Positions 17,103 to 47,623 of a stretch of 64,000 nucleotides of DNA are shown here, in pieces. Location of the stretch: assembly GCA_964187785.1 (NCBI GenBank), contig OZ076409.1:36334001-36398000 (forward strand). The letters are read 5' to 3'. The position numbers and the translations under genes are program-made. The DNA comes from Amphiscolops sp. MND2022 (Eukaryota). The notes beneath the pieces are model-generated. The model was not told the DNA's origin. It saw nothing but the letters and a program-made list of their open reading frames with translations, and searched no databases. Numbering within the stretch: position 1 is the first letter of the stretch; the number at the start of each line of letters is the position of its first letter.

Positions 17103-17103
17103 T

Positions 17104-18272: not shown

Positions 18273-18287
18273 TAGAAACTCATTTTT

Positions 18288-20990: not shown

Positions 20991-23900
20991 ATGGCGGTGT
21001 CCCATACTGGTTCACAATCATGGGTCACGATAGAGGATTCGCGTTTTTCAGACGACATGTCTGACGAAGTCACTATCGAACAACAGCGAAAGAAGGAATT
21101 GGCCGCTATGGTTCCTCCCTCAGAGAACTCCAGTGTTTCTGCAAATTCGTGTCGAACTGAGCAGTGGGTCGACGAAACCTGCCGCGATAGAGCTAATGAA
21201 GTGGAAGAGGGCTGGCCTAATTCGAATGTGACCGATGAACTGGCGGCTGAGGAAGGGTGCTCGCGCGCACCCCCGGCTGGAGAAAGACAACTTGGCTCAC
21301 AAACTGACATGGAGCAGGACCTCACTTATGTGGGAGGCATGAGTTACGCGCGACAGCGGGGACTCGGGACAACTCGAGGACCTACCCGGGTCTGTGCCTA
21401 CGGGAAGCACAAGAAGATGCGACCACCTATACTACAGGTAGGCGAGCCACGTCAAGAGGTACCCCGTGTCAGGAGTATGACAGGCTCATTGGCCTCATCG
21501 CAACGGTCTTCAGTATACAAGGCAGCACTATTGGATGCCCAGGCCGAAACCCAACGGGCCCTAGCAGGTCTGGCCAGCACTCGTGCTGAATGCAATGAGC
21601 AACATCTTGCAATCGTAGAGAACATTAAAGTGATGCAGACGACGATGCGTGAAGGCCTGCAGGTCAGCGATCAATTACGCACCGCGCAGAATGTGCAAAA
21701 CGCTCGAGTGGACACATTGGGTCACCGGATAGGAGAGATGAATGACACGTTGATGGCTCGCGAGTTGCGCGTGGAAACGCAGATCAACGACTTGAGCAAT
21801 CAGATGCACACGGTACTCAATGCCATTGATGTCATGAGGCGTGAGAGGTCACTCCCGCGGCAGCCCAGTGCAAGTGGAGGCGTGCGGAATGGAGGTACAG
21901 TCCGTGTCTCGGAGCCGACGTGCCCGAGCCAGGTAGTGAAATCGGAACTGCCGAGCGCGCTAAAGCCTAGCACTTCCAGGCCGGCCGTGCCTGCGCCCCG
22001 GAAAGATGAAGGAGTAGCCGGAAATTTGGTGATAGCCACGCCTGAGGCAGAGCGCAAGCCTGCACGAGTGCAGATGAGGGGACATCACGACTCAGCAGAA
22101 TCATCGATGCCTTCTGCAATCCAGAGTACTACTCGAGATCAAGGCGTGGACCCGATGTCGACCATCTATCTTGATTCCTCGGTTGAAGTCGACCTATCTA
22201 ACACCAAAGCAACCCTAGGCTCTCAAACCGAGGGAGCAACGTTTGCAACTGCCCCTATTTCGATGTCAGGACCAGATTCCCTATACTTGACTGCAGACTT
22301 GTTAGCCGATCATGGATTGCCCTCGGGCACTCCCTGTGCTAGCAGCACTCGTAAAAAGGACGAAATCGCTGACCTGTCGATACAAGCCACTCTTGGTAGT
22401 CATGACAGGACGCGCGAGGGGGAGGCCAAGGCCGATGAAGGAGAAGCCATATCCCCCGAGCAGCTGAGATTCACGGCCGCCATATCAAAGGCGATGTCAA
22501 AAGAGTTAGCGCCCTTACTCGCCGGCAGAGACTTGGCTCAGGCGAGGCCCAATGTGTATCGCGGGTCCAAAGACGGATCCATTGATGGGTGGATCCTTGT
22601 TATGCAGAGATACCTGAAGAGAACGCAAACCAAGGTCTCAGCCGAGGACCAGGCTTGGAGCATCATCGGTCACCTTGAGGGTGAAGCCCGCAACTACATC
22701 ATTAACAAAACGGAATCCGAACGTGACACCCCTGAGAAGGTGTTCGAATTGTTATCCAGCCGCTTTGGCGCTGGAGGAAACCGTATGCAAGTGCGACAAG
22801 CTTTCCAGAGCCGCATTCAACAAGAGAAAGAAGACTGGATACAGTATTTAGACGCTCTAGAGGGTCTTCGGAGTCAAGGATTCCCACAAGAGGCAATCAC
22901 CACCAAGCGCTATGAAATCCTCCAGCGCTTCATGGAAGGTGTACGAGACCCAGGGATGAGGTGGGAGCTGGCCATAGTGTATGCCTCGGAAGTCTTCCTG
23001 ACCGAGCCACCTACGGTGGAATCCCTCCGCTTCACCACCCGCCAATTGCAGCGCAACCGTCCCAAACCTAACCAATTCCCTCAACCCTATGACCCCAGAC
23101 TAGCGATGAGGTCTCGACCTCATCCCTTTGCGCCACTACCCCCCAACAAAATGGTATTACCACAAGGAGTAATGCCTCCCCCACCTGCGAGTAATGCTCC
23201 CCCCAATCAAGCAGCAGTGCAGCCTGCGGCACGCCTGCCCGTTGGCGCGTGCTATAATTGCGGTCAAGCTGGGCATTTTGCCCGGGACTGTCCCACCCGC
23301 GATCAAGCTCGCAAACCAGTGGCAGCTCCTGAACCAGAAGGCGTGAAAGTCACTGCTGAAGACGTAACTGATGGCGTGTTGGAGAGCTATCCAGGCATTC
23401 ATCAGTGTGCGCACTGTGGAGTCTATGACCATGTGGATGTCCCCTGTAGTGAGCATTCTCAAGCTCCGAGGCCTAATGATGAAATGGCCTACAATCGATG
23501 GGCCGAGGTGGAATCCGCCGGTGTGGCCGCCCACACGGTACCCCTGGAAGATGATCGCGTGTTAATGCTACACCCAGCGGAGCCCCCAGCGTTTCACCCC
23601 CCACTAATAGTTACATGTGGGACAAAGCAGATTCAGACGTGCTTGGAGCCTACAACGTTCAATCCACAAGGGAGAACGTTGATCTCGATTCATCTTATGC
23701 TGGCAGCAGAGCAGGTGCGTAGACCAACGCTAACCTTGGCGAAACTCTGGGTTGAGCTATCTGTCCTCTACAACCGGATGGAATTGCCCCGCCCAAAACA
23801 GTGGCACGTCCCTGGAGAATCGGAGACCCTGACTACATACTCGCCAGTACCAGTCTGTGCAACGATGGACGGCGTGGACGTGAAGTTCGAGGCCTGTGTG

Positions 23901-24998
23901 GTGGTAGATGTAATCCCACCCGGCTTATGCTTGGGACCTCAAGAACTGAAATGCTATAATTTCAACCACCAAGAACCCACCGGGGAAGCGCGAATAGATG
24001 AGCGTGCGTCGCTCGTTGTCTCCTTTGTGGTGCCCCATGCAGCACCTATCCCACTGCGAAGCCTAGTGGACACTGGTTCCGGAGTATCCATACTAACCTT
24101 CTCCGCCTTCAACCGGGTAGCTGCACGTACCGGAGCGGTCCTGAAACCCTATCAAATTGATTTGTACGCTGCCAATGGGAAGACAATAAAGACTTTCGGG
24201 TTTGCTGAGCAGATACGCTTCCAGTTGGGAGGGTATGAACTCGAAACCAATTTCGTCGTGGTAGATGACGCAATGGGCGTGGAGGACTTTCTGTTGGGTA
24301 GAAACTTCCTCCGTTCCTACCAAGTCTTGGTAGATCTGACCTCCATGAAGATAGTGGTGCGAGCACCCGTGAAGCCCGTCTGGCATCATGCACACACCCA
24401 GGTAGGTGACACTTCGTTAACTACCCCCATTACCCTGGACAGTGACCTAGTCCTACAGCCTTTCGAGCGTACAGTGGCAAAGGCCAAACTTGTCACCAAC
24501 GCGCTTGAACCATTAATTTTCCAGACCGTTGCGCTTAACGCCTCGTTGTCTGATCCCTCATTGCAAAATACCATCTTCTTAGAGGACAGCGTGGCCACTG
24601 TCAGTGAGACAGGAACACTGTATGTGAGCCTGGTAAACCTCACCAGCAACCAGCAGCGTGTACGATGTGGTGCCCACCTAGGCACGGTAGTGCCTGTGTC
24701 TCTAATATACCAGGCTGTGCCCCAAAAGCTGGATGCTACTGTGGAAGCTGACCACAAAAGTGAAGCCGACAACAGTCGAGCAAATTTTGTATATAAAGTG
24801 TACAGTGAAATGAATCTATCCACTGCTTCTGAGTTAACTTCTTCATCTGAATTTGAGTTTTTGTCTGCTACGGATCCAAGTGAAGCGGGGCTTTCGGAGC
24901 GCGAGATTCGCAAGCGCACCGATCCCGACCTATTGGCCCCGATCCCTGGGCCCGATTCTCAATTGCAAGAAGTCAAGAAAGAAACTCTGGGGCGCTAG
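20991..24998 (+). CDS. gag: Gag-protease polyprotein of the giant element
   Basis: First ATG at 20991 within the 1344-aa ORF. Likely coiled-coil N-terminal part, capsid-like region (RPNVYRGSKDGSIDGWILVMQRYL), two CX2CX4HX4C knuckles (23250, 23406), and retropepsin LVDTGS (24069)...LLGRNFL. Confidence 0.92.
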   Translation: MAVSHTGSQSWVTIEDSRFSDDMSDEVTIEQQRKKELAAMVPPSENSSVSANSCRTEQWVDETCRDRANEVEEGWPNSNVTDELAAEEGCSRAPPAGERQLGSQTDMEQDLTYVGGMSYARQRGLGTTRGPTRVCAYGKHKKMRPPILQVGEPRQEVPRVRSMTGSLASSQRSSVYKAALLDAQAETQRALAGLASTRAECNEQHLAIVENIKVMQTTMREGLQVSDQLRTAQNVQNARVDTLGHRIGEMNDTLMARELRVETQINDLSNQMHTVLNAIDVMRRERSLPRQPSASGGVRNGGTVRVSEPTCPSQVVKSELPSALKPSTSRPAVPAPRKDEGVAGNLVIATPEAERKPARVQMRGHHDSAESSMPSAIQSTTRDQGVDPMSTIYLDSSVEVDLSNTKATLGSQTEGATFATAPISMSGPDSLYLTADLLADHGLPSGTPCASSTRKKDEIADLSIQATLGSHDRTREGEAKADEGEAISPEQLRFTAAISKAMSKELAPLLAGRDLAQARPNVYRGSKDGSIDGWILVMQRYLKRTQTKVSAEDQAWSIIGHLEGEARNYIINKTESERDTPEKVFELLSSRFGAGGNRMQVRQAFQSRIQQEKEDWIQYLDALEGLRSQGFPQEAITTKRYEILQRFMEGVRDPGMRWELAIVYASEVFLTEPPTVESLRFTTRQLQRNRPKPNQFPQPYDPRLAMRSRPHPFAPLPPNKMVLPQGVMPPPPASNAPPNQAAVQPAARLPVGACYNCGQAGHFARDCPTRDQARKPVAAPEPEGVKVTAEDVTDGVLESYPGIHQCAHCGVYDHVDVPCSEHSQAPRPNDEMAYNRWAEVESAGVAAHTVPLEDDRVLMLHPAEPPAFHPPLIVTCGTKQIQTCLEPTTFNPQGRTLISIHLMLAAEQVRRPTLTLAKLWVELSVLYNRMELPRPKQWHVPGESETLTTYSPVPVCATMDGVDVKFEACVVVDVIPPGLCLGPQELKCYNFNHQEPTGEARIDERASLVVSFVVPHAAPIPLRSLVDTGSGVSILTFSAFNRVAARTGAVLKPYQIDLYAANGKTIKTFGFAEQIRFQLGGYELETNFVVVDDAMGVEDFLLGRNFLRSYQVLVDLTSMKIVVRAPVKPVWHHAHTQVGDTSLTTPITLDSDLVLQPFERTVAKAKLVTNALEPLIFQTVALNASLSDPSLQNTIFLEDSVATVSETGTLYVSLVNLTSNQQRVRCGAHLGTVVPVSLIYQAVPQKLDATVEADHKSEADNSRANFVYKVYSEMNLSTASELTSSSEFEFLSATDPSEAGLSEREIRKRTDPDLLAPIPGPDSQLQEVKKETLGR

Positions 24999-27900
24999 CG
25001 CCTGCGAGTCCTTAGACAACACTCTTAACGAGTTTGATGACCTATTCATGAAACGCAAGGCGGATATTGGCCGCTGTACCATTGCTAAACACACCATAGA
25101 GGTAGAGCCTGAGGCTGTACCGCACCGTGAAGGAGCTCGCAGAATGTCCCCCGAAAAGGCTGAACGAGCCAACCAGGAGGTTCGGAGCTTATTGGCCTTA
25201 GGGATGATACAACCTTCACTGTCCCCATGGGCAAGTGGTATCGTAATGGTAAAAAAGAAAAGCGGGGAGTTACGTTTTTGCTGTGACTTCCGATCGCTGA
25301 ATGAAGTAACCATTAAGGATGCCTACCCCCTGCCCCGTATCGATGAAAGCCTGGCGCGACTGGACAATGCAAAGATCTACACCAGCATAGATCTTGCCTG
25401 GGCTTTCTGGCAAATTCCCTTGCGAAAGGCGGACCGCCACAAAACAGCCTTTGCCTGTGAGTTGGGACTCTTTGAATGGCGAAGAATGCCATTTGGCTTA
25501 TGCAATGCATCAGCCACCTTCCAGCGAGCAATAGCGCGAGCGCTGCACAAAATAGTCAATCGCAAAGGCAGCATGGTCATGGCGTACATCGACGACATAG
25601 TTATAGCAACTGAGACTGTGGAAGACCAAATGGCGCGTTTGCGCGAGGTTTTTGAATGCCTCCGCGAAGCTGGCTTCAAGTTGCGCGTGGCCAAATGCGA
25701 CTTCATGAAACCAGAAATCAAATATCTGGGACGCGTGGTCTCAGCAGAAGGTGTCAAACCGGACCCGAAAGCTGTTGCCAAACTGCGCGATTGGGACATC
25801 CCCCGCAACAAAACTGAAATGCAAAGTTTCCTGGGATTCGCTAATTATTATCGCGAATTCATCCCGTGGCATGCCAAGCTGGTGGCGCCCCTCCACGCCG
25901 TTACGGGACTGAATGCCACGTTTGCATGGGGTCCTGACCAACAAAAAGCCTTCAACGAAATCAAGACAGCATTGATCGAGGCGACTGCGCTCGCGCAGCC
26001 TGATTCAGAAGGAGAGTTTGTGCTGGACACAGATGCCAGCGCTGTTGCCATTTCCGGTATCCTACACCAGTGGCAAGGAGCTCCAGGAGAGCGACGCCTA
26101 CGACCGGTCATATACGGCAGCAAGAAACTGACCACCACCCAAGCCAAATATGGGGCACCCAAGCTGGAGATGTTTGCTGCCTACTACTTCATCCTCAAGT
26201 ACCACAGCTACCTTTGTCCCCGAAAGTTCACCCTGAGAGTCGACAACCAAGCCCTATCCTGGTTGAAAACCTACTCCACGGACAAAGCATTGATTGGACG
26301 TTGGATTATGACACTGGACAGGTATCACTTTCGTGTGGAACACAGACCACGAACGCAACACCGCAATGCTGATGGCTTGAGCAAACGAACCAACGATTAT
26401 CGATGCCGAGAACAGCAGCTTGCGCAGCTGCCAGCTACTGGAGAGCGTTGGAACTTCCTCTCGGCCGAGGAATTCGACAACCTCCCCATAGCCCCATGGT
26501 TCGACCTGCAAGGTCGAATCATTCCAAATCATCCTGACCTACCACCGCATCTGCAGAACTTGGAGCCTAAGGCTCCTGACCAAGCACTCCGTGTGCTTCG
26601 CCGAGTGCAACGAGCGAACAAGCGAGAACGACAGGCGAAGGCGCTAGCCGCGCCTTTACCACCTCAGCCTCCACCCGTACTGCAAAAACACGAAGACTTC
26701 TACCCAGACTATCCTGAAGACTGGATAGACGTCACCACTGAGGCGAGTGAGGATTACCTGCTGCCAACACATGCAGTAAATGTCCCCTCGCGCACCATCT
26801 ATTCTGTGACGGGAACGAGTAACGCCATGCTACAGAACTCTCCTGGTGGCGTGCGCGAGTCGATCATGGCCCTCAAGGACATAGACACCGAGCTCCATGA
26901 ACACACTCATACCGTGCATGGGATCAAGGATTTGGTGTTAACCCAAAACCGCGATGTCCATGTGCTAGCGCTGAAAAAGCTCGTGCAGTGTGAATCCCTA
27001 GATAATGATGTGTTTCCCGAGAACGTGCGTGAGTTCGCACGTAATTACTTCCGCCAGAAAAAGGACCTCTTGTTCATAAACAAAAATGATGTCCTTTGCG
27101 TGCAATACTCCCCCACCCAACGCCCACTGCACGAACGTCCGTGCATGATCATAATGCCTCAGCTATACCAGCACGAGATTCTGTTCCGCGCGCACGACGC
27201 AATGGGACACCAAGGTATCTCAAAGGTAGTAGCTCGAATTCAAGAGCGCCACACCTGGCCCGGCATACAGCGCAGTGTCGGTCGGTACGTCGGCCAATGC
27301 CTCACCTGCCAACAAGTACGTGACAAGCCTGGCGACGTACGATTTCAACTGAAAAACATTCAGAGCGGCTACTTCAACGAGTTCGTCCAATATGACCACT
27401 TAAAAATCTGCCCCTCTGATAACAACAACACTGGCATTTTGTCCATCATCGACCATTTCTCCAAATTTGCAGAGGCAGTCCCTTGTAGTCATCATGACTA
27501 TGACGCAGTGACCACCTCACGATTGCTGCTGCAGAAATGGTTTGCCCGCCACGGCACCCCCACTCGCATGCAATCAGACAATGCTCCTAACCTTACTGCC
27601 GAAGTCTCTAATGAGTTCCTAAAGGCAGCTCACGTCACTAAGGTGACCTCCACCGCCGGACATCCACGAACTCAAGGCTTGGTGGAACGGCAAAACCGCA
27701 CCCTCTTAACCTTGTTGCGAGTCTTTTGCTCACGTCGCATGCGCGACTGGGACCAGTGCTTAGATGAAGTAATCGGTGCCTATAATTCCACCAGGCACGC
27801 CACTACAGGCTTCTCGCCCTATATGTTAACAAGGGGTGTTGAGAAAGCAATCCCCCTCACCTTTTTATACCCTGAATTTGCAGCCAAGTCCTTCGATGCG

Positions 27901-28413
27901 CATGAAGCATACGTGGATCATGTGTTGGCTCGCCAACAAGAAATTCACGACTTGGTCCGGCGCAATACGCACCAAGCCCAATTGCGCCAAAAGCTGAAAT
28001 ATGATCGTGCTATCCGAGCACGAGCTTACCAGCCGGGAGAGCTTGTCTGGGTTTTTTGCCGCTACGTGCCGCAAAAAGGCTCCCCAAAACTGATGCGCGC
28101 CTGGCGTGGCCCGAACAAAATAGTGCAAGTTTTTCAAGAAGGACATGTCTATGTATTGGACACAGGCCAAAAGGTTAATTTTGAGCGCCTGAAACCTCAT
28201 CATAGTGGGCCCCTTGAGCTCGCCACCGCGCAAGCGGACAGCGGCGAAATAGTGGTACTCATGGACCCTGACCCTGAACGTTCTGTTGAAGCAGTTGACG
28301 ACGATAAGTCCCAGCCTTCATATAAAACTGAACAACTACTTTCAGAAGCATCTGACGTGTCCTTGCCTCCGCGCAAGCAACATTGGATGGATACCCGTCT
28401 GCGCACAAAGTAA
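24853..28413 (+). CDS. pol: Pol: reverse transcriptase, RNase H, integrase (+1 frame relative to gag-pro)
   Basis: SPWASGIVMV, DFRSLN, MPFGL, YIDD (25585); RH DTDAS..NADGLS; IN HDAMGH..CLTC, D..D..E core (YDHL, SDNA, VERQN) and WRGP. Confidence 0.97.
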   Translation: MSFCLLRIQVKRGFRSARFASAPIPTYWPRSLGPILNCKKSRKKLWGASACESLDNTLNEFDDLFMKRKADIGRCTIAKHTIEVEPEAVPHREGARRMSPEKAERANQEVRSLLALGMIQPSLSPWASGIVMVKKKSGELRFCCDFRSLNEVTIKDAYPLPRIDESLARLDNAKIYTSIDLAWAFWQIPLRKADRHKTAFACELGLFEWRRMPFGLCNASATFQRAIARALHKIVNRKGSMVMAYIDDIVIATETVEDQMARLREVFECLREAGFKLRVAKCDFMKPEIKYLGRVVSAEGVKPDPKAVAKLRDWDIPRNKTEMQSFLGFANYYREFIPWHAKLVAPLHAVTGLNATFAWGPDQQKAFNEIKTALIEATALAQPDSEGEFVLDTDASAVAISGILHQWQGAPGERRLRPVIYGSKKLTTTQAKYGAPKLEMFAAYYFILKYHSYLCPRKFTLRVDNQALSWLKTYSTDKALIGRWIMTLDRYHFRVEHRPRTQHRNADGLSKRTNDYRCREQQLAQLPATGERWNFLSAEEFDNLPIAPWFDLQGRIIPNHPDLPPHLQNLEPKAPDQALRVLRRVQRANKRERQAKALAAPLPPQPPPVLQKHEDFYPDYPEDWIDVTTEASEDYLLPTHAVNVPSRTIYSVTGTSNAMLQNSPGGVRESIMALKDIDTELHEHTHTVHGIKDLVLTQNRDVHVLALKKLVQCESLDNDVFPENVREFARNYFRQKKDLLFINKNDVLCVQYSPTQRPLHERPCMIIMPQLYQHEILFRAHDAMGHQGISKVVARIQERHTWPGIQRSVGRYVGQCLTCQQVRDKPGDVRFQLKNIQSGYFNEFVQYDHLKICPSDNNNTGILSIIDHFSKFAEAVPCSHHDYDAVTTSRLLLQKWFARHGTPTRMQSDNAPNLTAEVSNEFLKAAHVTKVTSTAGHPRTQGLVERQNRTLLTLLRVFCSRRMRDWDQCLDEVIGAYNSTRHATTGFSPYMLTRGVEKAIPLTFLYPEFAAKSFDAHEAYVDHVLARQQEIHDLVRRNTHQAQLRQKLKYDRAIRARAYQPGELVWVFCRYVPQKGSPKLMRAWRGPNKIVQVFQEGHVYVLDTGQKVNFERLKPHHSGPLELATAQADSGEIVVLMDPDPERSVEAVDDDKSQPSYKTEQLLSEASDVSLPPRKQHWMDTRLRTK

Positions 28414-28431
28414 CGTGCTGGAGGTTCCCGC

Positions 28432-30351
28432 ATGCACTACCAGCAATTCGACTACTCAACTTCGGGCACTGACGACGAGTTGTCCGAAATCATGCTACCG
28501 GTACCTCCTGATCCCGTTGATGCTGATCGCAGGGAGCCCGAACCCCAACTCCCTTCAGACCAATCAACATCACCTACCCATCATCTGCCTCAACTATTCT
28601 CCGACCATGAGCGCGCGCGCTCTCCGTCACCACGAATATCCTCTCCCGAAAAACAGCCCTCCTTACTGGGAACATCGGCCCCACTACTGACAAATCCATC
28701 ACTAACGAGTTTCCTCAACAACTATCCCATTTGGCCGGCCGCTACTTGCCTTCCTCTGAAATCCGCCACTGAGGATGACGACGCTCAGTCCAATGTCCCT
28801 ACTCTTCCCACAACATTGCCCGGAGCGGGGACCGCTCCTTCTTTCAAAAGGGGGAGGGGGAGACCACCCAAAACGCGAAAAAGGCTGGTCAGAGCGAAGG
28901 CAAGAACGAGGAAGAAAGAAACAACAACAATAATGCCGTCGGAAACAGTAATACCGACCGAGACTTCTGAGGGTCCCCGATACCAGCTGAGAAGCAGGCG
29001 GCAGCCACGCTATAAGTGCGGGACCTGTGGGCTGCGAGACTGTGTTTGCTGGCTAGCCGTCAATGAGAACCGGAGGGTTCCCACTGGAGCCCGGGCAGTC
29101 CCTCCAGAGCGGGGAGAAAATCTAGTACATCGCCTTACGGTGAGAGCTGAAAAGACTTATTCCTCCCTGGAACGACACGGAGACCATCCCGTGGATACTA
29201 TCCTGGAGAAGTTATCACTACCTGGAGTACCGAAGGCCCCATGTCCTCGATTTAAGGAGTGGACTAGCGACGGAAAAGGGTTAGAGTTCACCCTCGCAAC
29301 GGTGATGCCCCCAGTACCCAGCAATATTGCGTTTGGACCCTTCAACTTCGAGCGGGAGCCTGTGCAAATGGTCCGATGCATCACCGCTGATCTTCTCTGT
29401 GACAAATACGGAATTCACGTGGATCCGGGCGGAGTATACAGCCCAGCGCCGCACTGGTGGTTGCTGGTCACTGCTCCACGAGTGGAGGCAATAGTGGAAC
29501 CATTGCACCTGCTGTCCTGCTTGGAAGGTCTGAGGACCCTCACTACCGCGGACTTGATACTTTGCTTCCACATCAAAGACTGGTATCGTGGCAAAGTGAA
29601 ATTCGCGTGGTGGTTGGAGCTGATCATCACTTGTTTCCCCAATTATCCTCGCATTAGATTGCTGGACGAGTGGACTCATACTTTCGAGATTCCGCTTCCT
29701 CCGAAAGCCGTTTTGAGCACCCTAGACACATGGGTTAGGGCGGGCAGTGATAATCGAGCGATGCCACGCTCGGTATGGCAAGACCTGGCTGCAATCCAGG
29801 GGCGTACGCCCCGCGTATGCTTGCTTGCCGACAATGGGCCGGGGAGAGAGATTATCTACCCGGGAATCCTGCATCCAGCCCCAACAGAGCACCTCTCATT
29901 AGATGTGACTGATTTTCTTCAAGTAGAAGGTGATATGGTGTTAGCGTGTCCCGCTGACCTAGAGACCAACTCAGCTGCCCTACGGTACGTGCTACGAGAA
30001 TGCGGCAAGGAGAATGTATTCTCCTTGCGTCCTAAGGTGGGGGAGATTCTCACCATTCCTCCCGATATCAACCCAAATCCCAATCAGAGTATTCACTTGC
30101 TAATAATCAGAGCAAACCAGCGTACGCCGCTGCTCACAGACGACTACCTACGTTGTATGACGCACTTGATACAGCGTTTGATGGAGAAAGGATCCACGAG
30201 GGTCCACCTACCTATACTGGACCCAGAGCGACCCGCCCTTTCATTGGTAAACTTATACCATACCCTAACGAATTTGCTGGAGGGCACCGGCATTCACGTG
30301 GTGCTGCATAACCGCGTGTATGTGTCCATTCTGAACATAGGGCTGGAGTAG
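28432..30351 (+). CDS. In-frame post-integrase ORF: AT-hook, Cys cluster, two TARG1/OARD1-like macrodomains
   Basis: 639-aa ORF in the pol frame, 18 nt after a single TAA. Contains KRGRGRPPK (28846), RYQLR, CGTC-GLRD-CVC, and two blocks (~29323-29670 and ~29890-30318) that align by eye to the TARG1 macro fold. Confidence 0.7.
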   Translation: MHYQQFDYSTSGTDDELSEIMLPVPPDPVDADRREPEPQLPSDQSTSPTHHLPQLFSDHERARSPSPRISSPEKQPSLLGTSAPLLTNPSLTSFLNNYPIWPAATCLPLKSATEDDDAQSNVPTLPTTLPGAGTAPSFKRGRGRPPKTRKRLVRAKARTRKKETTTIMPSETVIPTETSEGPRYQLRSRRQPRYKCGTCGLRDCVCWLAVNENRRVPTGARAVPPERGENLVHRLTVRAEKTYSSLERHGDHPVDTILEKLSLPGVPKAPCPRFKEWTSDGKGLEFTLATVMPPVPSNIAFGPFNFEREPVQMVRCITADLLCDKYGIHVDPGGVYSPAPHWWLLVTAPRVEAIVEPLHLLSCLEGLRTLTTADLILCFHIKDWYRGKVKFAWWLELIITCFPNYPRIRLLDEWTHTFEIPLPPKAVLSTLDTWVRAGSDNRAMPRSVWQDLAAIQGRTPRVCLLADNGPGREIIYPGILHPAPTEHLSLDVTDFLQVEGDMVLACPADLETNSAALRYVLRECGKENVFSLRPKVGEILTIPPDINPNPNQSIHLLIIRANQRTPLLTDDYLRCMTHLIQRLMEKGSTRVHLPILDPERPALSLVNLYHTLTNLLEGTGIHVVLHNRVYVSILNIGLE

Positions 30352-30719
30352 CCCACTCAAAACATTTTTGTTGCCCCCCTATTCAATTTACCCACCCGAT
30401 AATCGTTATGCCTGGGAGGAAGTCTTAAACCATCCCATGAAATGATTACATTGTAACGTAGCGTTAGATAACTTCTATCTTTGTGTTCTAATTAGTTAGT
30501 TGAACTACAATTTAAACTTGTTGCGGTTCCCCTATGGAACCATCTTTGTACTATTGCTGCTGAGCGATGAGCCTTAAGCTCTCCCCACAATGCACTGGGT
30601 AAGCCTAACGGTTATCCTTTTTAGACCTATGATATAATGGCTTATTACCCCAACAACACGGTACCTTTTACGACGGGACCTCACGCCAATAGGACTCAAG
30701 AATTGCCTGCGCGAGCGCA

Positions 30720-31157
30720 GTGGCCGCCCTACTCACCCAACTAGACACAATGCAGACGCTGCCGGGCGTATCCGTGTCTCTGGTGACGGAAGTAGCCGGT
30801 TACCGTCGCACCCTAACCTGCCAAAACAATGCGTGGGATGGCCACGATCTGACGCACCAGTTCCTGGATGAACGTTCTACCACAATGCTCGGGCCCAGCC
30901 AAGGCACGAGATTCGAGCAAGAAGCCTCACTTTGTATGGTGCCTGCCAGCGTAGCAACAATGCCTCCTCCTCAGATGGTCGCATTGCCCCCACCAGCACC
31001 AAATCCAGGACCAATGACGCCAACTTATTCCGGTTCGCCTGCCTTTGGAACCTCATATCGAGCACCACACATGGTACTGCAAACCACTACTAATGCACCA
31101 GTCTCTGATCGGGAGCCCTCGGGTCCCGGTTACCACCCATACCCAACCCAGAGCTGA
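30720..31157 (+). CDS. Small Pro-rich accessory ORF of unknown function (start uncertain)
   Basis: 145 open codons with the same GC-rich composition as the other element ORFs. No recognised domain; may be a disrupted N-terminus of the downstream ORF. Confidence 0.4.
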   Translation: MAALLTQLDTMQTLPGVSVSLVTEVAGYRRTLTCQNNAWDGHDLTHQFLDERSTTMLGPSQGTRFEQEASLCMVPASVATMPPPQMVALPPPAPNPGPMTPTYSGSPAFGTSYRAPHMVLQTTTNAPVSDREPSGPGYHPYPTQS

Positions 31158-31339
31158 CGGGAAGGAGTACCAGCGAACAGGCCGTAATTGTGGCCTTGCA
31201 AGCAGTGGCGAACCATCCCAACTCCACCGATTTCGTCCGTGCCGTGGAGCAGAGAATCCCTGGACTAGCCACGTATCTGCAAGCTGCTGCTTAGCCCGCG
31301 GGCTGTGACCCTCCTGCGCCCCTAGTCGAAACGGCATCT

Positions 31340-34300
31340 ATGGAAATGGAAATTGTCGCTGGACCGAGTAACAGCGCAAGCGCTGCCACTGGCACACGAG
31401 AAGAAGCGGGGAGAAAGCGGCTAACTGAAGAAACTGTCTCAGTTACCCCAGCTGGCTCGGTAACCGAGAGCCCAACTAGTCGTCCCCCTCCCGACAAGCG
31501 CGCTGATGTACCTCGGCCCCAGCTGAACAGTGTGGTCATCCCTAGGCCTCCGTACCGGGTGGGTCATCTAGGCCGAAGCGCACCTCAAATGTCTTTAGCA
31601 GACGCGATCGAACAGTATGGAGATCCGGATGCAGGCTCGGAAGTGAGCTCTGTGCCCTCGGGCACCAATCTAGTAAATATGTCCCTGGAGATACCTGAGA
31701 CGGTGGAGGAAGCCCATCCTCCAGCTTTCCTCCCTCCATCTGACGACGTATCCGGCTCAGTAGTCACCAATGATAGCAAACGCATTTGGATGGCGGCTGA
31801 GCATCTCTACCCCAGTCAATGCGCTATCAAGAAAAGGACTGAAACGGAGCAAAAGGAGATCAACCGGACCACGATACCGGCGCAAGTCACGCGTTCGCTC
31901 CGCCCCCGTGACGCAGACATGTCGGAGCAGGCTTGGGAACAGCGTGCTCGAGAGCAGCTGCCTATGACAACCAACGATTATATGGCGCCCCTGCAACACA
32001 ATATCACTGAGCAATTCCCCGCACGGTATGTGTTGCGAGAAGGTGAGACATGGGATGCGAACGCCCGCTACGCTCGCAACCTGAGATCTTTGAAACCCCT
32101 ATTGAAAGCAGCTCTGCAGCGCGCGCGCTACTGCATGGCAGTTGATTCTACTTGCCGAAGTGACCTCCCTATTGACAATATAATGCCTGACGTGCTGGTG
32201 CTAACTATGCCCCTGTCTCGCTTCGCTGAGGTCGCTGAGATGGTTGGAGCCATATACGATCCAAACTTAAGAGGATCACAAAAGGAACCACCCCCACAGC
32301 GAGTGATCTTTGCCAATCTTCTGGATCACATGGCTTGCGAAGGGTTGCTGCACGACCTGGACGCCATAATGTCCAATGTCAGACGACTTGGAGACATTGC
32401 CGCCCTGGTAAATGAGGTGGTCGGTGCAATGGAACGTGCCGCAGGGATCCTTCGGGGTCGTCTGGGAGCGCTCGCGCTCTTTGTATCCCCACCAGGATTT
32501 ATGTATTGGCCACGAAGTCTGCAGCAGTTCGTCTACATTCTGTTGGAGGTGTGCAAGGCGCGCAGAGTCGAATTCGCCATCTGTGCACCGAACTTGCGCG
32601 TGGACCGAGAAGACCTGCGCCCAGATACCTTATCGTATCCAGCCTTCTTTGCTGCCGTATCTAGAGCGCTCGTGGCTATAGAACGCTCGGGAAACGCCCA
32701 ACTAACCATTGACGATGCTATCCTCTATGATTATGGAATGCGGATGGGCAGACTGGCCTTTGACCTTGACGGCAACCGCATTGCCCGAGAATCTAATGTA
32801 ACCGAACGAGAGGCTGTTCGCCGGTATAATTGGCTAGTGCGAAGAGATAAAGAAATCCCAGTGCGCGCAGAATTAGCCGACCTGACAAAACAATTTGGTG
32901 CATGGCCTGCAGCGCGCACCGTCGAGAGAACAATTCCTCAGATCCACTTCGCCTCGGGAATCGAGCCCGTGAAGCTGCCTGTAGGGATGCGGTGTATCGT
33001 AGCAATGGAAGCAACAAACCTGAAAGCAGAAGTCGACGCCGCAGCCACCACTTATGCTTATTGGTACCAGACTAGGTTTGCCACCAGAACCCTGGCAGAA
33101 GTAGCTCGAGAGCTCAATTGTCCATTGGAAGCCTTCTGTACCAGTCTTGGGCTGGGATGGAACCTAAAGGTACTGACTTCTGAGTTCTCGCTGACCTCTA
33201 CGCAAACGGACAAGCTGCTAGAAACGATTGGAGAGGCAACCGTCGGAGAAATACTAGCGCTCGCGCTAGCGATGGGCCCAACCAAGTTTGTAGCCGGACC
33301 ACTGGCCTTGTTAGTCGACATAGTAATTGCCTGCGATCTCACCGTGTTCTACAGCTATTTGGTCCTGGCACAAGGACAACTACGCAGCCTGACCCGATGG
33401 GGACACTTGATGACTTCCAAAGACCAGCAAGACTATTCCGCCCAACTGGAGCGCATGCGTGCGTCAATCCAGCACTGGCTATACTCCACCCTGGTATTCG
33501 CCTCCGGCCTATTCGTGGGCGTAGACCAATCCCAACCCCTACATAACTCCGACCAGCAGATCCCACGGGAAACGGCAGGATTCCCCATGCCGCAGCAGAT
33601 TGCAGATCTCACCCTGGCTGAAGTAGAAGATTTTGTGGCAGCAATGGCTCCTGTCTTGGCCCCTATCTTTGGCGCAGTGGGCGTGTGCCGATACCCAACT
33701 AAACCATTGGCAACAGCCGTCCAAGTGCACATGGTCTCCTTCAGTACCTACCTGCGGGGCCGTCCCTCACTGGCGTATCCAAGGGTAATAAATGCAGTGC
33801 TGAGTGGTGAGGTGCCGCATGGGTACACGACCATAAAATCCGAAAGAGAGTTGGAGGAGAACCTGATGGGTTTGCTGCGCGCGCGCACCAGGAAAGCATG
33901 TTCTCTACCCCGAGAGCATGGACCTGTGAACTGGTATTCCGCACCTCTCAGTTTGGAAGGGGTCCCCTTTAGGTTCCCCTGGAGTCAGGAGTTCATAAGG
34001 AAGGCGATTCGCGCCAGCACTAGTGCTGGTCCACCCGTAGATCCTTTATACTGCTTCAAATGCATCGCCTTCCCAAACCGCTATTGGAAGGAGCCGTTAG
34101 GTTGGCCCAGGGCAAAACCCGTTGGACGCGCCCCAGAGGTGTTCAACCGCCAAATCCAACACTTGGAGTCAGCCCAGATCCCAGGATGGATTGAAGGCGC
34201 TGCGCAGATCAGGCAGAGGAATCTCCAATCCCGCGTTATCCCATTCCCCAGGAAGTCGGCATGGAAACCTACGGGAAAGATGACCATATCTGGAGATATG

Positions 34301-34519
34301 TCCATCGTCCAGCATGATGAAATAAATTCCGTGTTGGGCTCAACAGAACGAGCGAGATGGGAAGAGTACTGTCTGAAGTTGGAGATTGTAAGCTTCCCTA
34401 AATGGAAGAGAGCTTGCGAGCTCTGCAGCCAATCTGGATGGATCTCACGCCGTGTAGCACTAGCGGTAGAAGGTAGAGCAGAGATAGCGAGACAACAGGC
34501 GTTCGCCGATCACTATTAA
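31340..34519 (+). CDS. Large accessory ORF (1059 aa) in env position with an SGNH/GDSL esterase-like domain
   Basis: Uninterrupted 1059-aa ORF between pol and the 3' LTR. Residues at 32129-32680 align by eye to SGNH blocks I-V. No signal peptide. A Ser/Pro-rich tail in another frame (to 34805) may belong to it. Confidence 0.8.
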   Translation: MEMEIVAGPSNSASAATGTREEAGRKRLTEETVSVTPAGSVTESPTSRPPPDKRADVPRPQLNSVVIPRPPYRVGHLGRSAPQMSLADAIEQYGDPDAGSEVSSVPSGTNLVNMSLEIPETVEEAHPPAFLPPSDDVSGSVVTNDSKRIWMAAEHLYPSQCAIKKRTETEQKEINRTTIPAQVTRSLRPRDADMSEQAWEQRAREQLPMTTNDYMAPLQHNITEQFPARYVLREGETWDANARYARNLRSLKPLLKAALQRARYCMAVDSTCRSDLPIDNIMPDVLVLTMPLSRFAEVAEMVGAIYDPNLRGSQKEPPPQRVIFANLLDHMACEGLLHDLDAIMSNVRRLGDIAALVNEVVGAMERAAGILRGRLGALALFVSPPGFMYWPRSLQQFVYILLEVCKARRVEFAICAPNLRVDREDLRPDTLSYPAFFAAVSRALVAIERSGNAQLTIDDAILYDYGMRMGRLAFDLDGNRIARESNVTEREAVRRYNWLVRRDKEIPVRAELADLTKQFGAWPAARTVERTIPQIHFASGIEPVKLPVGMRCIVAMEATNLKAEVDAAATTYAYWYQTRFATRTLAEVARELNCPLEAFCTSLGLGWNLKVLTSEFSLTSTQTDKLLETIGEATVGEILALALAMGPTKFVAGPLALLVDIVIACDLTVFYSYLVLAQGQLRSLTRWGHLMTSKDQQDYSAQLERMRASIQHWLYSTLVFASGLFVGVDQSQPLHNSDQQIPRETAGFPMPQQIADLTLAEVEDFVAAMAPVLAPIFGAVGVCRYPTKPLATAVQVHMVSFSTYLRGRPSLAYPRVINAVLSGEVPHGYTTIKSERELEENLMGLLRARTRKACSLPREHGPVNWYSAPLSLEGVPFRFPWSQEFIRKAIRASTSAGPPVDPLYCFKCIAFPNRYWKEPLGWPRAKPVGRAPEVFNRQIQHLESAQIPGWIEGAAQIRQRNLQSRVIPFPRKSAWKPTGKMTISGDMSIVQHDEINSVLGSTERARWEEYCLKLEIVSFPKWKRACELCSQSGWISRRVALAVEGRAEIARQQAFADHY

Positions 34520-35540
34520 CCTTCCAACCCATAACTTGGAACCAGACCCAGTTGGCCCGCCCTCGTCGCGAACGAGCCCTCAGTCCTCGCAGCAGCAGTC
34601 CGGAGAGCACACTGCCGAATTGACTCCCAATGCAGCACTAGTGCAGCCTATTGCCGAGTTGTCGCTTCCCGAAAGTCCGTCGGACTCTGAAACAGTTACC
34701 ACAGAAGTTTCTCCCAGACGTCGAGCGTCAGTGTCGACTGATAACCCAGAACAAAACTCAGATGATGCCACTAAAGAGCGGACCCGACGCAGTTCAGCTC
34801 AATAAACCCAGCCGCTAATGGGAGCGTTCGCGCTCCCTATACCCTCATAAACTGCCAACAAACAGTGCCTCAAAACTTCTCATCCAGAACGGTGCTATAG
34901 TACAAAGTGCAATTTTTGTTCTTAGTTATGGTTATATAATTAGTGTACCATTAGTGTTGCACTGGGTGTACGGCCAATAGAGTACGCCTGCCCCAGTGGC
35001 TTGAGTGACCAAGCAGAAAGAAAAGAAAACTATTGTTCAAAAAAACTATCATTTTCGTTGCGAACCGTTCGCGGTGTTTTTGAGTTGTCACAATCAAAAG
35101 AAGTCTTATCCCTCTTGATTGCGTTTCTTTCTAGTCTAGTGTTCTTCATCAATTTGGTTGTTCACCGTAAGAGCCCCCAAGCTCTAAAAAAAGTTTTTAA
35201 TCGCCTGAAATAAACTGAAGACTTGTAGTCTCAAATGGTAAGGAAAAGAAATTTTAGCTGACTTTGGTCGCAAAAAAGTTTTTACATAAGTTGACTGCCC
35301 AAACGAGTTTTAACCGGCTGAAAACTGTAGCTCTCGAGCTGGTGCTAAAACCTCGTTCATGTTTTGTACGAATAGCCAGGCAGTAAGCCCTTTTTTTTCT
35401 CGTATAAAACCGCAAAGTCGACCAAAATTGTTGCCGAAAAACAAGGACTCGTCCTTGTTCCCCGATGTGTGGATGATGGTTCCCAGCGGTCACTGTGATG
35501 CAGTTCCCAGACGATCCAGACGCCGCTTGCCAGGGACGAC

Positions 35541-35562
35541 AAGCCAGGAGCCTGGGGAGTGA
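35541..35562 (+). other. Imperfect polypurine tract of the giant element
   Basis: AAGCCAGGAGCCTGGGGAGTGA directly before the 3' LTR TG; purine-rich but interrupted. Confidence 0.5.
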
Positions 35563-36293
35563 TGTAACGGCAAGCTCTGGTACAGCAATATCAACCAACT
35601 TTGCAACTTCGACATGTTTAGAAAATTTTGTCAAAAATTCGTTCAAATTTGACGTGGCACTCAAACATGCTCAAGACGAAGTACCTGCCAGAAAAAGCAC
35701 CCCAGAAAAGCAGAAACCGCCGCTCGCGACGAACAAGCACCGGAGACGACAAAAAAGACGTCCCAGACGCATACAGAACACGGTATTGTGTCAATCTCTA
35801 GGAGATATCCATTACTACAGTGTTCCAGATGTTCGCCTGAGTATCCCTGCGGTGTCCTGTGTGGCAACTAGCGCTAGCGCTGGGAACCCGAGGTCAATTT
35901 TCATCAAATGACTCTGAACTCTTGATTTCTTGTTGTATTTTTCGATGTGGTAAATTGATATGCTCGAGAGCTGTTGTTTGACATCTGTTTATCCAATTTG
36001 GCGATTTTATCAGATTCTCCAATATTACGGTTCAACCTTCATCGATTTTCAGCCCAATTTTTAAAGGCTAGTTGAGCAGTGGTCTTGAGTCTTGCAAGAT
36101 GCCTGTTACTTTTAGCAGTTACAGACTAGGACCAGGCCAGAGAGCGTCCTACAAGACGGTTCCCCCACCTTGGGACTGGCTCCTTCAGAGGGAAAATGAG
36201 CTAGGGCCGCGGCGATCTAGGTCCCAGATTATATTCGCTGTTCTAGTTCCTCCACTCTACGTTGCGGTTCAAGCGCCAGCGCTTATCGTTACA
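35563..36293 (+). repeat. 3' LTR of the giant element
   Basis: TGTAACGG...CGTTACA; direct repeat of 17529-18272. Confidence 0.97.
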
Positions 36294-36976
36294 GACTGTT
36301 TGGTTTCGACAAATGGAATCCCAGTTTGTCTTGGATGGAATTACCAACGACACCACCAAATATCACCACATCCTCGCATCAATCCCAGAAGACGTCGCAA
36401 TCAACTTGCCAATGGAAATTGAAGATTACAGCAGCCTCAAGGATAGCATCACTCAAGTCTACCAGAAGTCAAAAACAGAACTGATTGAAGAAGCATTAGG
36501 AACGATTTCACTGGATGGACAAAAGCCCTCAGTTTGCCTCTTGCGCATCCAGCGCAAGCTTTCAGAATGTTATCTGACAATGGACAACGATGTAATCAAG
36601 CACCGCCTCATGCAAGCCATGTCTATCTCAACGCGTCCTCACTTTCCGCACATTTGGACCTGCCACCCGACAAATTCGCCAAACAAGCTGACACCATATA
36701 CAGCTACTCGAAGGACACTTTTCAGGACAACATGCACGTTTACGCCACACAGCACTCATCGTCATCGTCCTATACACGACAGCCGCAACTAACGCCAAAA
36801 AACAGCACAGCCGACAACAATATTCAGCCATTCTCACCCGGACAACGACCGAAAATTTGCCGCTTTCACTTGTTTTTCGCTAACTCCGCCAAACGTTGTA
36901 AGCCCTGGTGTAAATGGCCTGAACCAAAACCCGCACATATCGAACCGTCATCTTGCGCACAATCACCCGCCGCACA

Positions 36977-37022
36977 GGGAAACGAATAGCCCCACTCGTG
37001 TGCGCGGCAACGATTGGGGATC
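36977..37022 (+). other. Programmed -1 ribosomal frameshift signal (gag to pol)
   Basis: G GGA AAC heptamer in the gag frame just before the TAG; pol is in the -1 frame; CCCCA/TGGGG stem follows. Confidence 0.8.
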
Positions 37023-40000
37023 CTATTTGCATCCGCCTTGCCGCCCCAATCAACTCACAGAAGACTACTTTCATCGCCGACACTGGATCTATGGTATCAA
37101 TCATCAAATCAACGCTCGTCAACACCGATTACGCCACGCTGACAACAATGAATCTCAAAACAGTAAACGGAGACCGTATCAAAGTTCACGGAAAAATGAC
37201 GCTCACAATCGTCATACCCTCCCTCCGACGCAACTACAATTTCACCTTCTACATCGCCGACGTCAACGACAACATTCTAGGACTGGATTTCCTCAAAGAC
37301 AAAGACATAAATATCAATTGCCGCAACTTAACAGTAACCGACAACGTCACAAACCTCACTTCAACACACAACAATTCACCCGCACTGCCAAGTCACAGCC
37401 CTGTTCTAGCCGTTTCTCTGGACCTGTCTCAAATAACCGACACAGCTCTCAGAGAGATAATGGAACAGCACTCATCTATTTTGAGAGACGCCGACTTCAA
37501 CACGCCATGTACGCACAACACCACTCATCGCATCGCCGTTTCGTCGCAACCTAATTTTTGTACGCCTAGGAAGCTTTGCCCTGAAAAGCTATCGATCGCC
37601 AAATCTTCTTTCGACGAAATGCAGCGTTTAGGAATCATTCGACCATCAAAAAGCCCATAAGCATCGCCTCTGCATATGGTACCGAAAAAAGACCCCGGAG
37701 ACTGGAGACCGTGTGGAGACTACCGCGCCCTCAACCAAATCACCGTTCGCGATTCGTACCCACTGCCACAGCTTTCATCGTTCGCACTTCACGACAAACA
37801 TGTCTTCAGCAAACTCGACTTAGTCAAAGCTTATCACCAAATACCCATGCACCCCGACGACATTGAGAAGACAGCCATTACGACTCCATTTGGACTATTT
37901 GAGTTTCTTCGCATGCCTTTCGGACTCAAGAACGCCGGTAAAACTTTCCAACGATTCATCAACGAAGTCACCAACGGATTGCCAAATGTGCTCGCCTACG
38001 CCGATGATTTACTCGTCGCCAGCAACAATTTGTTTGATCACATCAACGCACTCACAGAACTCTTCACCCGCCTCGAGAAGTTTGGACTATGCGTTAACTT
38101 CAAAAAATGCCAATGGATACAACACCAAATCGACTTTTTAGGATACACCATAACATCGGAAGGAATCAAACCACAGACAGCAAGGATAAAGACGCTCGCA
38201 GAACTACCAGAACCAACAGATTACAAAGCACTTCGACGTTATCTGGGAATGTTCTCATTTTATCGACAACATATCCCACACTACGCACATATAGTTGAAC
38301 CACTACAACAACTTCTCAACGCAACCCAGCCGAAACAATCCTACCGCAGGAAGAATTGCCAACAACAATCAGCACCAACACCTTTCATCATGTTAGAAGA
38401 TCACCGCAAAGCCTTCTCTACTTTGAAGACCGCACTCGCTAATGCAACACTTCTTCATCACCTCACAGAAACCTCAACACTCTCTCTTACTACAGATGCT
38501 TCTGATTCAGCCATGGGAGCCGCCTTACACGACATAACAGACAACAGCAGCCGCCTTATTGCATTTTTCTCTCGCCGACTCACTGCAGCCGAAAAAAATT
38601 ACAGCACATTTGATAAGGAACTCCTCCCCTATCTTCGCAGCAACACTAAAGTTCAAACATCTGATTGAAGGACGCCATACCGTTGTTTTCACAGACCACA
38701 AACCCATCACCTGTTCTTTTCAACGAAGCCAAACCAACACCAACAACCCTCGACAGTCTCGACAATTTTCTCTACTAGCAGAATACATCGACGAAATTCA
38801 ACAAATCTCAGGATCAACAAACGTTGTAGCCGACTGCCTTTCTCGACCACCAACCGACGACACATCATTAACCGTAGCATCAACATCAACAGTTTCCATC
38901 GAAACCTATGATCTACTAAGAATTGCCAGCCTTCAAGACACTTCATGAGATGTCAGAACAATACCAACAAGGAACACAGATGATCAACATCGGAACCACG
39001 ACTCTCACCTGTGATAAAAGCATTCCTCCGTGTCCTATTCTGCCCGAACAATGCCGTTATCCAATCTTCACCCAATTCCACAACCTTTGCCACAGCAACT
39101 GGAAATCAACGTCACGTATGATCCTCACCCGCGTCACGTGGCCCAATGCTCAACGCACTATCAAAGAATGGTTCCACAACTGCCTCACTTACCAACAGAT
39201 GAAAATCACTCGCAATATTTATCCAACACGCCAACTCAATGAAGCCGTCGCCCGTTTTACCCACGTTCACATGGATATCGTAGGACCACTACCTGCAATC
39301 AACAATTCGCCATTCCGATGCCTTGTTACCTTCATCGACCGCAGCACCAATTGGATTGAAGCCCACCCAGTCCATTCCATCACAGCCGAAGAAGTTTGCC
39401 ACGCTTTTCTCACATCCTCGTTTTCTCGCTTCGGAGTACCATTGTACATCACGACTGCCCGCGGAACTCAATTTGAAAGTCAACTGTTCGCTCAACTTTC
39501 TCAAACTCTAGGATTTTGCAGACTCCGTACAACTTCATATCATCCACAGAGCAATGGAAATGTCGAACGATTTCATCGAACCCTCAAAGCAGCGTTAATG
39601 TCTTCAAAGACCGACTGGATAGCAGCACGCACTACCCGTAGTTCTTTTCGGATTGAGGTCAAAACCGGACATCAATCTCATTTCACCGTTAGCAGCCACA
39701 ACAGGACTAGATGTACTTTACCCGACAACAGTTGCAGGAAAGACAGCACCCATCACTCTCGCCTTCATCAAAAACATTCAGGACAACCTCGAACAGCTAG
39801 CTTTCACAAAAGATATCAGACAACATTCAACACGAAAGACCTTCATCCCAGATGCATTCGACAACTGCAAATTTGTATGGTTGCGCGTCGACCGAGTAAA
39901 GCAACCTTTGGAAGCACCCTACACTGGACCTCATGAACTCATCAAACTCAACAGAGACTCATCTACAGCAACAATTAAGAAAAACAACGACCATATCATC

Positions 40001-40321
40001 GTCAGCATTCAACGCCTCAAACCATGCACATTATCATTTGATCGCGAAAAGAAAAAACATCATCACCTACAGTCATCCACAGTACCCACCGAAGTTTATT
40101 GCTATTGCCAACAACCGTACAACAGGGAAAAGATCAAATGTTGCAACAACAACTGCCAAATTGCATTGTATCATTATGATTGTGTATCACTCAGAAAACA
40201 TCCACTAACAACATGGTTTTGTCCAAGCTGCAGAACTTCGACAACTAAAAGAATAACGATTGTGGAACCCGCAGATGCAGAACCGAATGACACCAGATGC
40301 CGACGACACAAACAACCTTAA
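36977..40321 (+). pseudogene. pol: pol of the CsRn1-like element (PR-RT-RH-IN-PHD), several stops and frameshifts
   Basis: [66 protein letters not shown] and a terminal PHD finger, spread over ORF fragments 36953-40321. Confidence 0.92.
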
Positions 40322-40446
40322 ACAGTTTCAACTTTCATTCTTTTAAAAACTTTTTTTTTGTTAAAATTTCTTTGTACCTATAAAAATCGCAGTTGTAAGC
40401 TAGTGTAAACTGATGATCACACAGCCTTACATGTGGACTCCGTCTT

Positions 40447-40458
40447 GGGGGAAGGAAG
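40447..40458 (+). other. Polypurine tract of the CsRn1-like element
   Basis: GGGGGAAGGAAG, 3 nt before the 3' LTR. Confidence 0.85.
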
Positions 40459-40461
40459 CCG

Positions 40462-40634
40462 TGTTGACTTCTTCTTATGCAAGCTTAGTATTACGTTATT
40501 ATGTAATCTTGTTCAGCTTGATTAGTTTTTTTTTATGATCTGACTAATACAGCTGCCTCTTGAAAAACTTTGTCACAGCTGCGATTTTCATTTAGGTTTA
40601 GACAATTCATTAGGGAACTTCTAAGAAATCTAAA
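40462..40634 (+). repeat. 3' LTR of the CsRn1-like element
   Basis: Direct repeat of 16932-17102. Confidence 0.9.
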
Positions 40635-41912: not shown

Positions 41913-42844
41913 GGAACTACAGCTCGAATGCGACCATTGATTGACGGCTGGCTGCAAGTATGGCGCCATAGCTTGACATCTGGAGGGGAAAGTATGCAAA
42001 AAGGGAGCCGACTTAGAAACGCAGAACTGCCAACGTATTTCACTGTCGACTCCTTACATCGATACTGTTGCTATGAGCAATGGACAAGGCACGATCTTAG
42101 TGAAATTTTTTAGCAGGTAGATCAACTAATTTTCGAATTAATAACGCAAAATTTTTAAACTCCATTTTTGAAGACTTTGTGGATGAACAAAATAAGTGAT
42201 GTTTTTGAATATAGAATATTTGCTGAATTGATTTAAAACATTATTTCAATTCAGAAATCATGCCTATTTGTGTCAAAACGAGTTTTTTCCAGCATGGAAG
42301 ACATGTATGACATGCATTTCTGGAATAAATGGATCGGAACTTTGTTTTTGGCACTTTTTTCAACTTTTCCTGCCAACCATTGTCGCAACTAAAACATGCT
42401 TTTTTCAGCTAAAAGGTTTACCATGGTCAAAGTTCAATAGACAATCTTCTTTTGTTTCAGACCTACTTTTTGAAAAAAAAAATGAGTTCTTTGCTTCAAT
42501 TGTGTCTAAATAAGGTTTTTCAAAGGAAAAAAGAGTGAAAGTTGCAATCAAAAACGTTGGGAAGCATTTAGTGAACGTTCTGAAACAATTATTGAATTTT
42601 TTCGCAGAGTGCACTTACGTAAAATTTGAATATATTCCCTTCGTACTTGTCCAAAAGGACAAAAAAAAGACAGTGCCACAGCACCTGAAATGCCAATCGA
42701 TATAAACTTGGACCTCTGGCTTGTCAATAACAGCTGCTTAAAACAAAAGAATTTAGAGGAAAATAATTCACAAAAAAGTGTCACAAAAAATGGCTAGTGA
42801 CACTTCGAGAATTTTCGGTAAGAATCTCTACCTTTAATGGGCCA

Positions 42845-43070
42845 TGTGAGAGAGTGACCTTGACTCTCGAACTAATCTCACAAAAAGAGCAACTAAAATA
42901 ATTAAATTGAGCAAGTTGTAAATAAATATTACTAACAACATATATATTATTTAGAAACATAACTGTAAAGGAGTTTATTCAAGAGCAAACCATTTACAAC
43001 AAGGTCTTATCCAAAATACAGTATTGCTCAATATTATTCTTCTCTGACTTGTCATCGAGAGACTATAACA
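42845..43070 (+). repeat. 5' LTR of the Mag-like element
   Basis: TGTGAGAGAG...CTATAACA; direct repeat of 47624-47849. Confidence 0.95.
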
Positions 43071-43082
43071 TGGCGCTGCGAG
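43071..43082 (+). other. Primer-binding site, probably tRNA-Ser type
   Basis: TGGCGCTGCGAG immediately after the LTR CA; close to the complement of metazoan tRNA-Ser(CGA/UGA) 3' ends. Confidence 0.65.
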
Positions 43083-43087
43083 ACAAT

Positions 43088-47392: not shown

Positions 47393-47623
47393 AAACCCAA
47401 ATCGAAAGACCCCAGACAAACTCAAACTGAACGTATCCCAAATACGTATTTATATTGAAGTAAAATTGGAGCCTACATTCCTTCAGTTACATTTATGTTA
47501 CTTTGTAAAGTCATACAGCCTACATTGACATTGAGCTACCCTGTAAAGTTTTACAGTTATACATTACCTACATCAATCAGTTGTGCAGTTTAAAAATATT
47601 AAATTTTTCATTAGTTGAAGGGA

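Follow-up and report, generated by a model that had tools for sequence, protein, structure and literature searches.

The window analyzed here, the whole stretch of 64,000 nucleotides, lies on contig C1 of a 1.07-Gb assembly with 13 very large contigs, which was the genome searched. It carries an LTR retrotransposon of the Ty3/Gypsy type, about 19 kb long, whose last gene is a decayed copy of an accessory gene of about 1,435 codons that is conserved in a high-copy Ty3/Gypsy clade. The features of the element and of this gene are the following:

17529-36293, + strand, whole LTR element
17526-17528 (left copy) and 36294-36296 (right copy), + strand, 3-bp target site duplication (TSD), GAC
17529-18272, + strand, 5' LTR of 744 bp, TGTAAC...GTTACA, 99% identical to the 3' LTR
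18273-18287, + strand, 15-nt spacer between LTR and primer binding site (PBS)
18288-18305, + strand, PBS, complementary to the 3' end of the host tRNA-Arg(TCG)
20991-24998, + strand, gag (PNMA-like, with a CCHC knuckle) and protease, the first piece of a gag-pol frame that is unbroken elsewhere
24838-28413, + strand, reverse transcriptase (RT), RNase H plus integrase of the Ty3/Gypsy type
28414-30351, + strand, C-terminal extension of pol, truncated by a stop in the window copy
30605-30624, + strand, putative splice acceptor with its branch point (predicted), 12 nt upstream of the natural start codon (ATG)
30637-31148, + strand, N-terminal part of the accessory gene with a small conserved domain, frame lost in the window copy
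31340-34519, + strand, 1059-aa ORF, which is the longest stretch still open in the broken accessory gene of about 1435 aa
32129-32680, + strand, predicted SGNH-type pseudo-esterase domain (ORF residues 264-447) with D269-S270, N326-x-x-D329 and R427 at the His position
32978-33505, + strand, predicted all-helical globular domain (pLDDT about 90) holding two of three hydrophobic peaks
33623-33709, + strand, proline-containing hydrophobic helix
34506-34805, + strand, low-complexity tail of the accessory gene, frame lost in the window copy
35563-36293, + strand, 3' LTR of 731 bp

Layout of the element and extent of its genes

The element has these marks of the Ty3/Gypsy type: LTRs of the form TG..CA, a PBS, the domain order gag-PR-RT-RH-IN and a Ty3-type RT, whose best solved relative is the RT of Ty3 (E 5e-71). 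The junction of LTR and PBS has 414 exact occurrences in the genome. Priming by tRNA-Arg(TCG) is common to lineages A and C of the clade, while lineage D has a different primer tRNA; most of the 260 pattern matches to tRNA-Arg(TCG) fall in a tandem array with a period of about 173 bp at C9:57537654-57576046 and beyond (L176-L184). The 2.7-kb leader (18306-20990) is without a long forward ORF, and a simple pattern gave no strong splice-donor consensus there. The insertion site lies within the gag of a second Gypsy element, which continues on both sides (16932-17528 and 36294-40634) with a DUF7041 gag and a frameshifted pol; the Cys-rich end of its integrase, which we take to look like a PHD finger, has no match in Pfam. 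A third, decayed Gypsy-like element, with terminal repeats of 227 nt at 94% identity, occupies 42844-47849.

Natural copies of related lineages carry gag-pol as single frames of 3255, 3202 and 3067 aa. A 639-aa "ORF" at 28432-30351 was considered as a separate ORF3 and rejected, since copies without breaks read it in the frame of pol; being the tail of pol, it leaves the element with two genes, gag-pol and the accessory gene. About 415 aa of this tail (29101-30351) are conserved, with 39-52% identity across lineages and a dN/dS of 0.10. As a lead, the last 160 aa or so are possibly a degenerate TARG1-like macro domain (Atlas 0.87; hhalign E 0.0035 with a score of 24.5, where shuffled controls reach at most 18.6), with no macro match in Pfam or PDB at this end of pol, and the segment before it may be a second, more degenerate repeat, at a score of 18.9 that does not exceed the controls run. 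In another retroelement family of the same genome, the integrase is followed by a macro domain that looks intact (L114-L116; on C5, C12 and C7).

The first-pass annotation had described the accessory gene as a 1059-aa ORF in the env position. An ATG-to-stop frame does lie between pol and the 3' LTR, but its length is an artifact of decay, as natural copies encode 1435 aa. Against the natural protein (P0001), the window matches in four pieces in three frames (30637-30720, 30714-31148, 31121-34507 and 34506-34802). The 1435-aa ORF was found in five of the six family-A copies fetched whole, with none in the sixth stretch, and a genome search with the SGNH domain gave identities of 96-100% for all 150 scored matches out of 3,111 candidates, 31 of the 150 (by our count) having an open frame of 1430-1440 codons. 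Upstream of the ORF, lineages A, A', C and D all have a pyrimidine tract and an AG, so that a spliced message is predicted and the gene would be expressed from a spliced subgenomic RNA.

Predicted fold and altered active site of the accessory protein

All seven motifs quoted for the domain in the first-pass annotation are present (32135-32671), and the ZfL2-1 motifs cited there agree with PDB 4c1b. The likeness to SGNH esterases that was drawn from them is above chance only in profile-profile comparison (scores of 21-24, where shuffled controls peak at 16.4 in 40 shuffles and 18.3 in 100) and by structure; it is invisible to Pfam (searched with the ORF, full-length relatives and 135 aligned members), to sequence searches of PDB (whether the query was one sequence or a profile) and to the ESM Atlas, none of which gave an assignment. 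The predicted model is a three-layer alpha/beta/alpha arrangement with five parallel strands, as the SGNH/GDSL fold requires, and SGNH chains dominate both of its structural match lists. Residues 1-34 of the model have low pLDDT, and the first two strands are seemingly swapped in many alignments; the sequence register favors the canonical arrangement of strands (2-1-3-4-5, the block I Ser following strand 1), and a remote lineage has D-S and then P-G at the spacing of ZfL2-1. With the model as the basis, the domain is predicted to have the SGNH fold. At E 0.001, Foldseek found no match in either PDB or BFVD. A first model (16 sequences, mean pLDDT 43), in which SGNH and enolase barrels were inseparable, has been superseded, and a match to the TMV coat protein (E 0.008) was rejected because it came from a doubled target. 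Elsewhere in the genome there are 39 canonical SGNH matches with intact motifs (L075-L104), many of them multicopy and intronless, which probably belong to other mobile elements.

It had been proposed that the block I Ser is kept and the catalytic His lost, and both points are borne out by the alignment: Ser is present in 20 of 24 rows at its column and in all seven lineage representatives that cover it, and the His position holds Arg in 38 of 50 rows and in 8/8 lineage representatives, with His in only one of the 50 (a fragment). The proposed loss of the block II Gly applies to most members (Leu in 30/35 rows), but Gly is kept in one remote lineage (P0230, P0246, P0257). The loss of the block III Asn is true in that GxND is replaced by N-x-x-D-H, but this reading depends on the register by one position, and the near-invariant N-x-x-D keeps polar residues (N326 in 34/35 rows and D329 in 32/35). 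D269 is found in 21 of 24 rows, and for the kept pocket residues the misses are mostly in fragments. The fact that D269, S270, N326, D329 and R427 are kept gives the look of a re-tooled pocket and not of decay, and we infer that these polar residues cluster into one pocket.

The helical domain had no match in Pfam or PDB searches, an absence that is not evidence of a new fold; one of its segments may resemble an HTH. Three hydrophobic stretches are present as had been noted, at modest strength (19-residue Kyte-Doolittle values of 1.5-2.1). Two of these peaks, inside the confident globular domain, are probably buried, and the helix at 33623-33709 (hydrophobic in six of six rows, KD19 1.7-2.3) is the only candidate membrane contact. 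We also agree that the protein has no signal peptide, by eye, at the natural start as well, and that it is probably not an Env, as hydropathy reveals neither a hydrophobic N-terminus nor a C-terminal anchor and no viral fusion protein was matched.

Lineages, selection and integration marks

A protein search found 59 relatives among 8,000 candidates, all without a name, and a profile search found 597 at E 0.001, of which the best 150 were listed. The same genome contains lineage A' at about 80% identity, lineage C at about 41% and lineage D at about 28%, with ORFs of 1430-1490 codons, and the C and D copies have the element layout of A and an RT 73-90% identical to that of A. Three remoter proteins (24-36% identity) derive from contigs of 2-23 kb, and searches of the same genome with those queries gave no match. 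The architecture aligns out to the remote proteins, comprising a small N-terminal domain, a disordered linker, the SGNH domain, the helical part and the low-complexity tail. The genomic placements cover lineages A, A', C and D but not lineage B (P0031, P0053, P0240). Scans of metagenome contigs with A6 and P0230 found no relative, and a weak search for longer fused forms found none among the 8,000 candidates. One homologue labelled as a Bacteroidota MAG protein (P0165, from an 816-bp contig) is likely host DNA in a bacterial bin.

The accessory gene is under purifying selection across lineages. The SGNH domain has pairwise dN/dS values of 0.08, 0.08 and 0.04 and the helical domain has 0.05-0.07, compared with 0.11-0.29 in the linker and tail and 0.01 in RT; the values come from our own counting script, with dS saturated in 3 of 24 segments. 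The spread over lineages together with the low dN/dS means that the gene is needed by the element and is no recent capture; the first-pass annotation had left room for a recently captured host gene, which is rejected on these grounds, as copies of lineages A, A', C and D all carry the ORF.

The TSD is 3 bp long in 28/28 copies with both ends located (from lineages A, C and D, at L039-L074 and L117-L174, and in the window) and 4 bp in none of them. Among 28 family-A pairs, 11 were without both ends and the other 17 all have 3 bp, while mismatched end pairs, as a control, agree in 8 of 272; the same length was seen in three further A, four C and three D copies (a fourth D copy was not located by the script); one AT-rich site is also compatible with 5 bp. 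The spacing from LTR to PBS is 15-16 nt in all 11 whole copies looked at. Annotation defaults are a TSD of 4-6 bp and a PBS adjacent to the LTR, and annotation on this basis would overlook hundreds of full-length copies. A 3-bp TSD is unusual for Gypsy elements, and Drosophila Gypsy families have a strong preference for 4 bp in the data given in PMC3276498. No report of 3-bp TSDs in Gypsy elements was found in the literature searched; Repbase, closed journals and supplements fell outside this scope and may hold such elements.

Possible roles of the accessory protein and known counterparts

The closest counterparts by description are the Vesta1 LTR retrotransposons of bdelloid rotifers, Gypsy-type elements that likewise have an SGNH gene downstream of pol in the place of env; their GDSL/SGNH ORF3 has S, G, N and H intact and, in the passages that describe it, no coiled-coil or TM parts, whereas here His is replaced by Arg and a domain of about 185 aa sits within about 1,435 aa that include further conserved domains (PMC5408684). 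Catalytically dead GDSL derivatives are known from Athena-L/Terminon retroelements, which according to the sections on them are Penelope-like and not LTR elements (PMC5408684, PMC6431247). The ORF1p esterase of ZfL2-1 (L2/CR1/RTEX non-LTR elements; PDB 4c1b) has a similar motif spacing at blocks I, II, IV and V, but as portrayed in PMC3905857 it is an active enzyme in a gag-like ORF1 position with a basic membrane face, and the domain here has a broken triad and is near-neutral. The label of Oskar-OSK-like that had been given to the domain is an analogy only, because OSK (PDB 5a4a) stands at rank 19, tied with active enzymes and no closer; the text of PMC7250577 has Oskar as a gene of insects that includes a LOTUS domain, whereas the accessory protein has no OSK or LOTUS match in Pfam. 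Ogre and Burro are, like the present elements, long, high-copy Gypsy elements with extra coding capacity (extra ORFs), but Burro is described with BIR, BCL2 and an in-frame env (PMC6431247), and the clade here has LTRs of about 730 bp, a 3-bp TSD and a 15-16-nt spacer. No report of a dead SGNH domain in a Gypsy ORF3 was found in the literature covered, with Repbase, subscription journals and supplements, which may hold such elements, lying outside it. We know of no flanking domains shared by the GDSL proteins of Athena-L/Terminon and the accessory protein.

The accessory protein is likelier to bind or dock than to act as an enzyme or a fusogen. By analogy, we tentatively favor a reading, plausible without being probable, in which it would be a scaffold in the cytoplasm without fusogenic activity; its dead SGNH pocket would hold an anionic, lipid-like ligand and would dock the element's particle on cell membranes. 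We consider it because the membrane binding of ZfL2-1 is independent of catalysis and survives mutation of the active site, as stated in the available text of PMC3905857. The pocket (Asp-Ser, Asn-x-x-Asp and Arg) would take up an acyl ligand or an anionic lipid, further contact with membranes or RNPs would come from the conserved hydrophobic helix and the basic C-terminal region, and docking may help particles to get to the nucleus or the germ line.

A role in RNA handling, through OSK-like RNA binding or through export or localization of the unspliced 18-kb genomic RNA, with a spliced message in the manner of Rev/CERV, seems rather unlikely given that OSK is tied with many active hydrolases in the structural list and that the SGNH domain is not consistently basic, its pI of 5.1 to 9.0 across lineages giving no support to a basic face like that of OSK or ZfL2-1; the ZfL2-1 esterase also did not bind oligo(A) RNA in the assays recounted in PMC3905857. 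Distinctly unlikely, in our estimate, is a role in counter-defense, in which the protein, as a pseudo-enzyme or a decoy, would bind some host factor of silencing or signaling and work alongside the macro-like domain. In its favor, the same clade apparently has, on weak evidence, another degenerate enzyme fold where pol ends, and the elements have reached hundreds of copies, but dN/dS is uniformly low (0.04-0.09 in folded parts) and gives no hint, at the level of domains, of an arms race, and the macro assignment is a lead only, with no Pfam or PDB match.

The domain could also be an enzyme still, with a non-canonical chemistry in which Ser270 works with Asp269, Asp329, His330 or Arg427. While it is true that the polar residues are more conserved than their neighbors across 24-80% identity and that His330 is found in 31/35 rows, two remote lineages have Asp or Tyr in place of this residue, the acid of block V is not conserved, and the activity of ZfL2-1 is abolished by H282S (in the experiments presented in PMC3905857), which makes the proposal improbable. 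We give still less credence to an unrelated alpha/beta/alpha fold that merely resembles SGNH, or to an unrecognized Env: the weak sequence scores and the possible swap of two strands would allow the former, and the env position with its predicted splice acceptor the latter, but against them stand the prevalence of SGNH chains in both structural lists and the D-S and P-G spacing in the remote lineage on the one hand, and the lack, by eye, of a signal peptide or C-terminal anchor and of any viral fusion protein match on the other.

A bolder extension of the membrane-docking reading, which we regard as unlikely in its full form, is that these elements, each of about 19 kb, constitute an undescribed Gypsy clade in which Env would be replaced by a non-fusogenic delivery protein of 1,430-1,490 aa. 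This protein would combine the re-tooled pocket of a pseudo-esterase with a new fold made of helices, and would bring particles into germ or stem cells by passing across membranes or moving along them. Integration in the clade would proceed with a stagger of 3 bp and a terminal overhang of 15-16 nt, and no such intasome geometry was found in the literature searched. Since an SGNH gene in the env slot of a Gypsy element (Vesta1) and dead GDSL proteins (Athena-L) are already on record in the portions of PMC5408684 that treat them, what is new is that a form both dead and multidomain has been fixed throughout a high-copy clade whose integration marks are odd. The role of non-Env third genes in LTR retrotransposons is an open question, as is whether retroelement esterases act as enzymes or as binders, judging from the relevant parts of PMC5408684 and PMC3905857. 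A dN/dS below 0.1 with Arg fixed at the position of the catalytic His argues for selection on binding and not on hydrolysis, and the clade also offers a natural construct for testing binding against hydrolysis.
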